UHGV virus genome: UHGV-0286155
Strand: one strand, 5' to 3'
Source: a virus
Length of the DNA: 16,183 nt
The notes under the pieces are model-generated. The model made no database searches and was not told where the DNA came from. It saw only the letters and a list, made by a program, of their open reading frames with translations. Each line of letters starts with the position of its first letter. The stretch's first letter is position 1. Shown here piece after piece: positions 1-11,629 of the stretch. The position numbers and the translations under genes were made by a program.

Positions 1-37
1 AGTCATCTGGGGCGGAGTAACAGTATTTAAACGGTTC

Positions 38-601
38 TTGGACAACCGTAAAGATATTCGCCTTGCAGAAATTGCTAAGGATGGAGAGAAAGAACATCTC
101 CGGACTATGCAGATCATGAGCGAGCAAGAAACTAAACGCCTGCGGGTTATTTCAGAAATGATTGCGGAAAAACCACTTCTCGATAACATGGACCGTATGT
201 CGTATGACGCTAAAACCCAAATGGTCAAATCCTTTGTGCGTTCAGATAACGCTCAAATTGATGGCGTTACTATTGATTCTGAAATGGCGAAAGAGTTGGT
301 TACGAATGCTCGTAGACGTTCATCAGAAATGAGGATTGATGGTATTTACCGAATTGAAGAAGTCAATAATACTGACCCAGAGAGTTTCAAAGTTAAGGTC
401 CGACGCGTAGATACCGACCAACGTCTAACCTGCGTAGTTCAGGATGTTTTCCTTGATGAATCCGGAAACAAAGAAGCATTGCAGCGAGCTGAGTGGGAAA
501 GAAAGCCTGTACATTTGAGCATTAACGCAAAACACGTCGATGGTGACATTAAGTCAGCAGTAATTCTCTATGTTCGAGATGTGGAACAAAAGCCCGAGTA
601 A
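38..601 (+). CDS. hypothetical protein, possibly 5'-truncated by the window edge
   Basis: 187-codon ORF. The track start is a TTG and the frame stays open back to nt 2, so the true start may lie upstream of the window. Convergent with the Q gene. No family recognised. Confidence 0.4.
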   Translation: MDNRKDIRLAEIAKDGEKEHLRTMQIMSEQETKRLRVISEMIAEKPLLDNMDRMSYDAKTQMVKSFVRSDNAQIDGVTIDSEMAKELVTNARRRSSEMRIDGIYRIEEVNNTDPESFKVKVRRVDTDQRLTCVVQDVFLDESGNKEALQRAEWERKPVHLSINAKHVDGDIKSAVILYVRDVEQKPE

Positions 602-608
602 TCGGGCT
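589..608. terminator. hairpin between convergent genes, possible bidirectional terminator
   Basis: AAGCCCGA-GTAA-TCGGGCTT stem-loop overlapping the stop codon of the 38..601 ORF and lying 8 nt beyond the Q stop. Read on the minus strand, the 6-bp GC core is followed by UUUUGUU. The U-tract on the plus strand is poor. Confidence 0.3.
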
Positions 609-615
609 TCAATAA

Positions 616-8394: not shown

Positions 8395-8710
8395 GTTGTG
8401 GTGAATGCGGCTCAGCGCACGCGGGTTAAGGTTGAGGCTGACAGTCGACCTTCTGTGGATACCCACCCGCCTGGTGTGCAACCTTCGCCAGGCACCGGGA
8501 GGCACCCGGCACCACAACTTTATGCTGTGTGTAGTCTTGGCGGTACCAGCTTGTACCCTTGCTTCCGGCTGGTACCGTCCTTTTTACAAAACAGAGAAGA
8601 GCATCACCGGACGACGGGCTCATAACCCAATCCATCCGGGCGGCTGCCACCGCAGGTGTTCTTCTCTGTTTTGTGGAGAAACTAACCGCCCCTACGGGGG
8701 CATTTATGGA
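8395..8710. ncRNA. candidate structured non-coding RNA locus, strand undetermined
   Basis: GC-rich stretch carrying only mutually overlapping ORFs in several frames with implausible Arg/Cys/Pro-rich products. Nested inverted repeats: GGTACCAGC/GCTGGTACC (8542-8576), a 14-bp long-range stem ACAAAACAGAGAAG/CTTCTCTGTTTTGT (8586-8599 with 8661-8674), CCGGG-AGGCA-CCCGG (8495-8509), and GCCCC-UACG-GGGGC (8688-8701) followed by AUUUAU. Confidence 0.3.
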
Positions 8711-8798
8711 AATGTAATTGACTCAATAATCGCCGGACGGTGAGGGCCTCCTTTTACCCGAATTCAGCGCGGTGCAGCGCATATACGTGGAGAACAAA

Positions 8799-9335
8799 AT
8801 GTCATTTATTAAAACTTTTTCCGGGAAGCATTTTTATTATGACAGGATAAATAAAGACGACATCGTTATTAACGATATCGCGGTTTCCCTTTCAAATATC
8901 TGTCGCTTTGCAGGACATCTTTCACACTTCTACAGTGTCGCCCAACATGCGGTGCTTTGCAGCCAGCTAGTGCCACAGGAATTTGCTTTTGAAGCTTTAA
9001 TGCATGATGCAACAGAAGCATATTGCCAGGACATCCCCGCACCACTGAAACGACTTCTTCCTGACTATAAACGGATGGAAGAAAAAATAGACGCCGTAAT
9101 CCGTGAGAAATACGGGTTACCTCCTGTTATGAGCACGCCAGTGAAATATGCCGATCTCATTATGCTGGCAACCGAACGCCGCGATCTCGGGCTTGATGAT
9201 GGCTCTTTCTGGCCTGTACTGGAAGGTATCCCGGCAACAGAGATGTTCAAAGTGATTCCACAGGCACCGGGCCATGCCTACGGGATGTTTATGGAACGTT
9301 TTAACGAGTTATCGGAGTTACGCAAATGCGCATGA
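8799..9335 (+). CDS. HD-domain phosphohydrolase (YfdR-like)
   Basis: H...HD...D metal-binding pattern (SVAQHAVL, ALMHDATEA, CQDIPAPLKRLL). GGAGAA RBS before the ATG at 8799 gives a 178-aa product, matching from memory the length of E. coli YfdR. Confidence 0.7.
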   Translation: MSFIKTFSGKHFYYDRINKDDIVINDIAVSLSNICRFAGHLSHFYSVAQHAVLCSQLVPQEFAFEALMHDATEAYCQDIPAPLKRLLPDYKRMEEKIDAVIREKYGLPPVMSTPVKYADLIMLATERRDLGLDDGSFWPVLEGIPATEMFKVIPQAPGHAYGMFMERFNELSELRKCA

Positions 9336-10343: not shown

Positions 10344-11383
10344 AGGCTGAAGCATGGCGGGTCAGCAAACTTGGTGAAATACCTGATATAACGTTCGAGG
10401 AAGCGTGTGTCAGGTGGCTTGAAGAGAAAGCACATAAAAAATCACTGGACGATGACAAAAGCCGGATCGGATTCTGGCTTCAACATTTCGCAGGAATGCA
10501 ACTAAGAGACATTACTGAATCAAAAATTTATTCAGCAATGCAGAAAATGACGAACCGGCGTCATGAGGAAAACTGGAAACTCAGGGCAGAAGCATGCAGA
10601 AAAAAAGGGAAACCTGTTCCAGAATACACGCCAAAACCAGCGTCCGTTGCAACGAAGGCTACGCATCTTTCATTTATAAAGGCCCTACTAAGAGCCGCAG
10701 AGCGTGAATGGAAAATGCTGGATAAGGCACCAATTATTAAAGTGCCCCAACCAAAGAATAAACGGATCCGCTGGCTGGAGCCCCATGAAGCACAAAGGCT
10801 GATTGATGAATGTCCGGAGCCATTAAAGTCTGTTGTTGAATTTGCACTGGCAACAGGCTTAAGACGCTCGAACATCATCAACCTTGAATGGCAACAAATA
10901 GATATGCAGCGCCGGGTGGCATGGATAAACCCGGAAGAGAGTAAATCAAACCGCGCAATTGGCGTTGCGCTGAATGATACTGCATGTCGCGTATTGAAAA
11001 AACAAATCGGGAATCATCACCGTTGGGTATTTGTGTACAAGGAAAGCTGTACCAAACCAGACGGAACGAAAGCGCCAACAGTCAGGAAGATGCGGTATGA
11101 CGCAAACACAGCCTGGAAAGCGGCGCTGAGACGGGCTGGTATTGATGATTTCAGATTTCACGACTTGAGACACACATGGGCAAGTTGGCTGGTTCAAGCC
11201 GGAGTCCCGTTGTCAGTGTTACAGGAAATGGGAGGCTGGGAGTCTATCGAAATGGTTCGTCGATATGCTCACCTTGCACCTAATCACCTTACCGAACACG
11301 CACGGCAAATAGACTCGATCCTAAACCCATCGGTCCCAAATTTGTCCCAGTCAAAAAATAAGGAAGGTACTAATGATGTGTAA
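10220..11383 (+). CDS. int: tyrosine integrase, lambda/P22 family
   Basis: 387 aa. N-terminal arm-binding domain [27 protein letters not shown]. Catalytic signature residues in GLRRSN, HDLRHT and the Tyr in VRRYAHL. The gene ends 14 nt before the tRNA-Thr 3' segment. Confidence 0.9.
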
Positions 11384-11397
11384 CTTATTGATTTAAA

Positions 11398-11446
11398 TGG
11401 TGCCGATAATAGGAGTCGAACCTACGACCTTCGCATTACGAATGCG
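11398..11446 (-). tRNA. partial tRNA-Thr(CGU): 3' 49 nt only, att core
   Basis: The reverse complement CGCATTCGTAATGCGAAGGTCGTAGGTTCGACTCCTATTATCGGCACCA matches the anticodon arm through the 3' CCA of enterobacterial thrW as I recall it. The D-arm and 5' acceptor strand are absent; sequence beyond 11446 is unrelated. Confidence 0.75.
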
Positions 11447-11629
11447 AAGTTTTTATATTTTAACTGCTTGAACAACCATCAGAAATCACAAATTTATCAT
11501 TTTAAATCATAATATTAAAACAAAAAACCTGTTGATGTAAATTGATGAGTGTTGATGTTTATCCTTTCAATTTACTTACACCAGCCGTTACATTACTGTA
11601 AACCGTAATCCCCAACAGGAACCCTAAAA

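Follow-up and report, generated by a model that had tools for sequence, protein, structure and literature searches.

A conserved prophage gene converging on antiterminator Q as a candidate anti-phage defence factor of the lysogen

The stretch of DNA considered here, 16,183 nucleotides of the virus genome UHGV-0286155 (the window), carries at its left edge the 3' part of a gene that converges on the gene for the antiterminator Q of a lambdoid prophage. The complete gene, which encodes the protein WP_000357056.1, is intact, conserved, stand-alone and under strong purifying selection. It lies in the gap between Q and a candidate late promoter cassette, and this gap is a recombination hotspot holding mostly opposite-strand cargo, part of which is defence-like. 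On balance, we lean towards reading the protein as a factor that the lysogen makes for anti-phage defence or exclusion. This reading draws on the recurrent cargo positions of the family, the defence-type companions found in the same slot, a machine-learning prediction and the accessory distribution of the gene. An earlier reading of the window, made from its letters and a list of open reading frames (ORFs) and referred to below as the sequence-only reading, had picked out this gene as one without assigned function running into Q; Q is indeed encoded on the opposite strand, and the product of the gene falls into no named family.

Extent and conservation of the gene

Bases 1-1100 of the window match several complete E. 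coli chromosomes at 100% identity, and one of these (NZ_AP022098, locus L001; window positions equal positions in this record minus 20000) was used to follow the gene leftwards. Within the window, the + strand frame runs uninterrupted from base 2 to its TAA stop (599-601), a span of 200 codons including the stop, and the start at position 38 in the list of ORFs is merely the first in-frame TTG that the window contains. The sequence-only reading had supposed that the gene might exceed 187 amino acids (aa) and had proposed extending the sequence to find its start. The extension uncovered the neighbours and the true start, a TTG located 418 bp to the left of the window edge, with a GAGGA ribosome-binding site 7 nt before it and an in-frame TAG 15 nt before it; the product is accordingly 339 aa long. 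The part inside the window encodes the end of a central hydrophobic helix, a helical linker and a C-terminal OB-fold.

A word-indexed search returned 101 full-length homologues, nearly all of 330-345 aa, from Enterobacterales, Pseudomonas, Acinetobacter and Burkholderiales. An exhaustive profile search extended this to 1513 clusters (at 50% identity) with E ≤ 1e-3, 586 of which had E ≤ 1e-30, and these too were uniform in length (about 335 aa) and matched in a single stretch. Across the Gamma- and Betaproteobacteria the family keeps approximately 30% identity and a constant layout of three modules in about 335 aa. The protein also matches the whole of PHROG 6191, to which no function is assigned (E = 1.6e-152; residues 3-337 aligned to positions 2-337 of a 338-position profile). 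Between the E. coli and Klebsiella copies of the gene, the proportion of differing non-synonymous sites (pN) is 0.063 and that of synonymous sites (pS) is 0.83; when Enterobacter copies are included, non-synonymous differences amount to 6-8%, against saturation at the synonymous sites (pS about 0.8). The TTG start is common to the E. coli, Enterobacter, Klebsiella and Salmonella genes. The number and uniform length of the homologues, the purifying selection and the shared start codon therefore indicate that this is a real gene, rather than an ORF present by chance.

Consequently, the notion that a standard late gene has decayed or been frameshifted to leave this ORF, or that the ORF has arisen by chance, is so improbable as to be negligible. 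Truncation at the window edge is all that speaks for it. The frame comprises 339 intact codons behind a ribosome-binding site, full-length homologues of constant size are found in many genera, and pN stays at 0.06-0.08 in E. coli, Enterobacter and Klebsiella while pS is saturated; moreover, the structure is predicted with confidence, and scans with Pfam and PHROG gave no similarity to late-gene families. A frameshifted fragment, the doubt raised in the sequence-only reading together with that of a frame lacking a ribosome-binding site, is refuted by the intact and conserved ORF, its homologues, the pN and pS values and the confident model, and the ribosome-binding site is present.

As had been seen in the letters of the window, a hairpin alone separates the gene from Q, and it overlaps the gene's own stop codon; the stops of the two genes are 14 nt apart. 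The hairpin folds with -18.4 and -17.3 kcal/mol. Because UUUUGUU follows it on the minus strand, it resembles an intrinsic terminator of the transcript carrying Q as well; its U-tract on the + strand is poor, and it may be considered a candidate bidirectional terminator. Terminators are annotated on both strands at the equivalent place in phage mEp390. Q forms the right-hand boundary of the cargo slot, and matches positions 1-118 of the 118 in PF06530 (E = 1.9e-52; 176.6 bits, cut-off 26). Its relationship to the solved Q21 is distant (E = 7e-4), and the binding-site rules of Q21 were therefore set aside for the window Q.

The gap between Q and the late promoter cassette

The sequence-only reading expected the late promoter and the lysis genes to follow Q. 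The late genes are present and co-directional with Q, and the late promoter appears to be displaced and not missing: an intact candidate late cassette stands 1178 bp beyond Q, in DNA to the left of the window (inside which its motif is absent), and one opposite-strand gene stands between. To the left of this gene is a 319-bp intergenic region, followed on the minus strand by genes for a 67-aa protein, a DNA methyltransferase, holin, lysozyme and Rz/Rz1; further left lie two + strand hypothetical genes and then HNH endonuclease, terminase, head and tail genes, again on the minus strand.

Mapping of the late promoter through relatives, which had also been suggested, yielded a conserved candidate cassette, within which a putative Q-binding element was placed by conservation. 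The alignment took the DNA upstream of the gene's 5' end, read on the minus strand, from the window prophage, from gene-bearing prophages of Enterobacter and Klebsiella, and from three phages, namely cdtI, mEp460_4F5 and PhiR40_1. It contains an invariant block, TGTTAAGAGTGGTTACTTCGCCACAC, succeeded by a rho-independent terminator whose stem sequence is specific to each lineage; the motif TGTTAAGAGTGGTnnCTnCGnCAC and the terminator are kept in the E. coli, Enterobacter and Klebsiella prophages and in all three phages. A Q cassette is described as a promoter, a Q-binding element, a pause element and a terminator (10.1101/651190). The cassette found here shows the pattern expected from this description, and would comprise a late promoter in which a Q-binding element is embedded, then a conserved leader that would be transcribed early, and a terminator. 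The -35 region of the candidate promoter is weak.

An exact-pattern scan of IMG/VR found at least 120 loci with the leader motif; the counts of loci and of slot contents that follow are all among the matches listed. A Q homologue is present upstream on the same strand in 68 of the 69 loci with more than 3.5 kb before the motif. The end of Q could be placed in 95 loci: in nine the motif comes 58-59 bp after Q, which is the canonical layout with the slot empty, and in the other 86 the distance is 629-3052 bp. In every locus the first base of the motif coincides with the end of an xAnnnT hexamer, which reads TACTGT in the window prophage, and a run of at least four T comes within 76 nt after the motif in 92 of the 95. 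The 15-30 nt preceding the hexamer fall into discrete classes that split exactly by Q subtype; in the window prophage, the whole region from this element to the T-run occupies NZ_AP022098 19384-19470 on the minus strand (window -616 to -530). GCGGTCCGC is found only with Q proteins 72-100% identical to that of the window (32 loci), and the other elements only with Q proteins at most 58% identical to it, namely GCGTACGC at 45-58% identity (22 loci), TTTACGTACGTAAAA and its relatives at about 39-52% (37 loci) and TTGTGTTATAACAAAA at about 50% (4 loci). These classes look like natural pairs of Q and Q-binding-site specificity in the QuuD branch (PF06530); literature searches turned up no experimental data on the pairing of Q subtypes with upstream elements.

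Between Q and the cassette, approximately 95 phages carry 49 protein clusters (at 30% identity), of which 40 are encoded opposite to Q. The commonest occupant is an OmpC/NmpC-like porin (31 loci), while the family of the window gene occupies the slot in 8 loci, and in a Pantoea prophage also. The 48 other clusters include several that match models of defence systems or of defence candidates. In mEp390 the slot holds a TIR-TM protein (PADLOC, 1.6e-57; Pfam TIR_2), and elsewhere there is a KAP-type NTPase matching PDC-S20 and PifA (3.5e-176), an OLD/Gabija/HEC-04-like ATPase paired with a cytosine methyltransferase-like ORF, the latter recognised by eye, and proteins matching PDC-S42 and PDC-M53A. 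The slot of cdtI contains a DUF6731 protein with a small ORF, and related pairs elsewhere include a small hydrophobic protein. Since the slot is empty in some relatives, and in others holds unrelated and mostly opposite-strand cargo, it is best described as a recombination hotspot. Comparison by hhalign (probabilities below 1%) ruled out that the other occupants are distant relatives of WP_000357056.1. Slot proteins of 391, 379, 427, 355, 317 and 323 aa are without a PADLOC match, and these large proteins may represent further unrecognised defence candidates.

The position is thus one for prophage cargo, or morons in the sense of Hendrix and colleagues, as the sequence-only reading had proposed: at the same place in close relatives the gene is present in some and absent from others, the slot being empty or otherwise filled. 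The gene-bearing stretch is held by 87 of 5426 complete E. coli genomes, and part of the adjacent late-module DNA by 1443. For other traits of a moron the picture is mixed: a hairpin is present at the stop but has a poor U-tract on the sense strand, the search upstream gave no convincing sigma-70 promoter, and the guanine-plus-cytosine content (about 0.42) lies below the 0.50-0.57 of most flanking phage DNA, although that of Q is similarly low (about 0.43). Two of the earlier suppositions did not hold. The site is not one of the stx type downstream of the late promoter, as it precedes the candidate promoter cassette. Nor is the orientation opposite to Q unusual, given the slot contents above and the quuD, convergent nmpC and essD layout of DLP12 in K-12. 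In DLP12 a quuD of the PF06530 type and nmpC on the opposite strand are followed by the leader motif (matching the pattern exactly, at L147 6223-6246) and then by essD-rrrD-rzpD. It differs in that the cargo is a porin of the outer membrane, whose gene is disrupted in K-12 by IS5, rather than an unrelated 339-aa protein without signal peptide, and in that the DLP12-type Q, about 50% identical to the window Q, pairs with a different upstream element. The layout is therefore normal for QuuD-type lambdoid phages and not an anomaly.

A conceptual precedent for an opposite-strand prophage gene in the Q region is provided by taiEcA (Tai, tail-assembly inhibition) of phi80, a defence gene in opposite orientation within the Q-controlled late operon, for which lysogen expression and shut-off by opposing late transcription have been proposed in terms of a 'noncontiguous operon' (PMC11364771). 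The arrangement is not the same. Whereas taiEcA interrupts the late operon, the window gene is upstream of the candidate late promoter, the leader and terminator (NZ_AP022098 19384-19440) being beyond its 5' end (gene at 19582-20601), so late transcripts should not cross it. The two genes are also unrelated in sequence, and no partner with an anti-defence role was found for the window gene.

Other members of the family are found in three kinds of place. Enterobacter, Klebsiella and Pantoea prophages carry the homologue in the Q slot; those of Salmonella (including Typhi), Morganella, Acinetobacter and Moraxella have it directly downstream of a cI-like repressor, on the same strand; and in P. 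aeruginosa prophages it stands between tail genes I and J. As the neighbours differ between these contexts, with no conserved partner gene, the gene stands alone and moves from one type of prophage cargo site to another. For two of the three positions, expression in the lysogen is suggested. The place directly downstream of the repressor is that of rexAB in lambda. The Salmonella BTP1 protein BstA is described as an abortive-infection protein encoded by a prophage (PMC8585504). The likeness is one of position, in the four genera with the homologue after the repressor; there is no similarity in sequence or domains, the family consists of a single gene and not a sensor/channel pair, and the window gene itself is not beside a repressor.

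This distribution bears on the possibility that the protein serves the phage's own cycle, as a DNA-binding OB-fold protein in replication, recombination or the timing of lysis. The resemblance of the OB-fold to single-stranded DNA-binding proteins and the adjacency of the gene to regulatory and lysis modules would suit such a role. It is nonetheless improbable, because close relatives lack the gene or have unrelated genes in its place, different prophages carry it at three unrelated genome positions, and far fewer E. coli genomes contain the gene stretch than the late-module part.

Several features of the homologues' surroundings were recorded. Two Klebsiella prophages with the homologue (L024 and L026, both 1-1234) have a Cas1-domain ORF and then an AcrVA2-like ORF a few kb outside the slot, on its late-gene side, an unusual pairing in a prophage. 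In a Pantoea prophage (L153 6617-9000), an AAA_15/AAA_21 ATPase of 485 aa and a 308-aa ORF lie directly upstream of Q, and look like a defence-type pair on its other side; DUF968 and KilA-N genes are found there in the window prophage. The repressor operons of Acinetobacter-type prophages (L014 4308-8193 and L148 4550-7700) have several cargo genes in a row, with a conserved 100-aa ORF, the family homologue and a GGDEF protein in both and an HSDR_N-domain protein in L014. A two-gene system formed with the 100-aa neighbour was rejected, as the ORFs of the two clades are not convincingly related.

Predicted architecture and candidate function

Scans of WP_000357056.1 with Pfam, NCBIfam and PADLOC found nothing significant, a scan of 41 family members gave just a sub-threshold match to DUF7947, located on the OB domain of 7 members, and a profile search of PDB sequences returned noise only. 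No mention of DUF7947, phrog_6191 or WP_000357056.1 was found in the main texts of the literature searched. An AlphaFold2 model built from 41 diverse members (pLDDT 83, pTM 0.69) predicts the succession of domains given in Table 1. The C-terminal barrel is assigned by the model to the OB-fold through its topology and its structural match to OB-fold proteins; the matches extend over 75-85 residues at 7-14% identity, and folds of the SSB, PriB and RPA types score nearly as well. The homology and structure search that had been advocated at the outset thus led to PHROG 6191 and a C-terminal OB-fold, but not to a named family. The B subunit of an AB5 toxin was considered and rejected, since the N-terminus is acidic and non-hydrophobic, an A-subunit gene is not adjacent, and the OB-fold does not stand alone but forms the C-terminal third of the 339 residues.

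The helical region opens with the hydropathy maximum of the protein, the highest 19-residue Kyte-Doolittle value being 1.77 in WP_000357056.1 and 1.2-2.3 across the 41 members. Charge bias mildly favours a cytoplasmic location for the C-terminal part. Invariant or near-invariant residues are concentrated in the N-terminal domain (G48, T56, P57, Q67, Y74, G104 and S105) and the OB domain (R251, D253, G254, Y256, Q301, E304 and W305). This combination of domains is not seen in characterised defence proteins.

A pointer to a defensive function comes from DefensePredictor (DeWeirdt, Mahoney and Laub, Science 2026; PMC13092281), in which WP_000357056.1 is listed as a 'Predicted novel defense gene' without a defence homologue, with a mean log-odds of 6.55 (range 4.51-9.74) against a cut-off of 4. 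It appears in Table S10, which contains 1,041 unvalidated clusters, and is not among the validated DS-1 to DS-42; five conserved peptide motifs of the family are likewise absent from all supplementary tables of that paper, including the sequences of validated proteins (PMC13092281). The defence role of the family hence stands as a prediction.

The gene is autonomous single-gene cargo inserted between Q and the candidate late promoter cassette. If its protein does act in defence, the following mechanism may be envisaged. Being outside the early-right and late units and converging on Q, the gene could be transcribed in the lysogen by a promoter of its own, while in lytic growth antisense read-through from the early operon would oppose it. 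The central hydrophobic helix (approximately residues 131-150) would tie the protein to the inner membrane, and the OB-fold, probably cytoplasmic, would recognise a phage-derived ligand, for instance single-stranded DNA or a phage protein. Recognition would trigger the conserved N-terminal domain and the helix, which would compromise the membrane or another essential process and so abort the infection. Taken as a whole, this membrane-held, OB-fold-sensing, abortive scheme is tentative, and in its full form rather doubtful.

Two proteins offer partial parallels. The TIR-TM protein of mEp390 (mEp390_047) is also a single gene in the same slot and orientation, its membrane segment being implied by the name of the PADLOC model only; the window protein, by contrast, has no TIR or known effector domain, and the OB-fold is its sole recognisable fold. 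Lactococcal AbiP is an abortive infection protein that is membrane-anchored and binds nucleic acid. It resembles the window protein in concept only, as a single membrane-anchored protein with a nucleic-acid-binding module, both properties being predicted in the present case; unlike the N-terminal anchor of AbiP, the hydrophobic helix here is central.

A number of observations weigh against a defensive role, or against particular parts of the scheme. The scan of WP_000357056.1 against PADLOC-DB v2.0.0 matched 0 families, and the 41 members gave only scattered sub-threshold matches to PADLOC, with at most 3 members per model. The alignment of these members contains no known catalytic motif among the invariant residues. 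The hydrophobic segment is merely 14-15 residues in some of them and the bias in flanking lysine and arginine residues is mild (3.6 on the C side against 2.2 on the N side), so both the insertion of the helix and its topology are predictions. A scan upstream of the gene found weak sigma-70 matches only, no more than in shuffled sequence, and the late promoter and Q-binding site were deduced from conservation. The overall rate of experimental validation for DefensePredictor was 45% (PMC13092281). Guilt by association is imperfect, because the commonest slot cargo is a porin, a lysogenic-conversion gene rather than an immune system of the classical kind. More generally, the function is inferred from sequence and context.

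Features of the protein that are read above as a sensor and effector could instead belong to a superinfection exclusion factor, which would block entry of phage DNA at the inner membrane and leave the cell alive, rather than sensing infection and aborting it. Inner-membrane entry blockers are exemplified by HK97 gp15 and lactococcal Sie2009, the former from the tail-operon kind of place in which the P. aeruginosa homologue is also found. A single conserved hydrophobic helix, lysogen-expressed positions beside the repressor and an acidic N-terminal domain that could be exported are all compatible with this. We nevertheless consider it unlikely. The entry blockers known to us are small and phage-specific, whereas this family maintains about 30% identity and a constant architecture of about 335 aa in prophages with different tail types; the N-terminal domain is without a signal peptide, and the charge bias would put an OB-fold resembling nucleic-acid binders in the cytoplasm.

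The prevalence of the porin also raises the question of whether the gene is one for lysogenic conversion unrelated to phages, with effects on the envelope, stress or virulence as for the nmpC/lc porin, bor and lom. This seems quite improbable for a protein with no signal peptide or lipobox in its sequence and no A-subunit or partner gene nearby. Its OB matches are also short and of low identity, with SSB, PriB and RPA types scoring nearly equally; its defence score derives from a model trained on defence proteins, and the other cargo of the slot includes defence-type proteins. A defence or exclusion factor made in the lysogen is therefore retained as the favoured reading.

The surrounding prophage and implications

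The positions of the gene, the features of its product and the adjoining elements are collected in Table 1.

Table 1. Features of the cargo gene, its product and the flanking elements; nucleotide positions refer to the window unless NZ_AP022098 (L001) is named
Feature	Position	Strand	Basis or remark
Full cargo gene, WP_000357056.1	NZ_AP022098 19582-20601 (window -418..601)	+	RefSeq: 339-aa hypothetical protein
3' part of cargo gene	2..601	+	199 codons and TAA of the 339-codon WP_000357056.1; PHROG 6191
Hairpin AAGCCCGA-GTAA-TCGGGCTT	590..609		8-bp GC-rich stem, stop codon 599-601 in loop
Antiterminator Q, QuuD-type, 126 aa	616..996	-	PF06530; RefSeq 'antiterminator Q family protein'
Conserved leader block	NZ_AP022098 19417-19440	-	Alignment
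Terminator stem	NZ_AP022098 19391-19403	-	Downstream of leader block
Terminator T-run	NZ_AP022098 19384-19390	-	After stem
N-terminal alpha/beta domain	residues ~8-125		Model
Helical region, hydrophobic helix at its start	residues 129-218		Model
Hydrophobic helix EIMFTVLGAAVIWGGVTVFK	residues 131-150		Hydropathy maximum, same position in 41/41 members
Small beta element	between helical region and C-terminal barrel		Model
C-terminal five-stranded barrel, helix between strands 3 and 4			OB-fold (model)

The 67-aa gene that follows the late terminator (NZ_AP022098 19059-19262, minus strand; window -941 to -738) belongs to phrog_331 and bears a weak resemblance to a Ren-like exclusion protein (E = 0.043). 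Together with the DNA methyltransferase gene it travels as a module common to mEp460, cdtI, Stx2c phages and others. A scan of the region with Rfam gave no match above threshold; a sub-threshold match to the small RNA STnc130 (NZ_AP022098 19281-19417, + strand; 25 bits against a gathering threshold of 55, E = 0.57) is antisense to the late leader and terminator region and is probably due to chance.

At the prophage end, a tyrosine integrase gene (window 10348-11466, + strand) abuts a tRNA-Thr gene (11481-11556, minus strand) next to proA/proB; we take this integration site to be thrW, where CP4-6 resides in K-12. Alongside its lambdoid early region, the prophage has a small terminase of the P27 type and genes for a sheathed tail. 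A hypothetical gene that RefSeq marks as frameshifted (window 8481-8800) lies between an ECs1072-family gene and yfdR.

For phages of the QuuD type, these results imply that the late promoter cassette can sit 0.6-3 kb from Q, and annotators should therefore be wary of assuming that it follows Q directly. The slot thus delimited offers a practical target in the search for new defence genes. A broader proposal is that the proteobacterial family of some 1,500 clusters constitutes a new single-protein inner-membrane immune system with a previously undescribed architecture (conserved N-terminal domain, central membrane helix, C-terminal OB-fold as sensor), and that the gap after Q serves as a dedicated defence hotspot, insulated from surrounding transcription, in which cargo is kept antisense to early read-through; this is a genuine possibility, though one that falls somewhat short of probable. 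Should the protein prove to be defensive, a widespread single-gene family without recognised domains would join the prophage immune repertoire, in a form that is easy to test, and its pairing of an OB-fold with a hydrophobic helix could reveal a new kind of link between the sensing of phage and a membrane effector.

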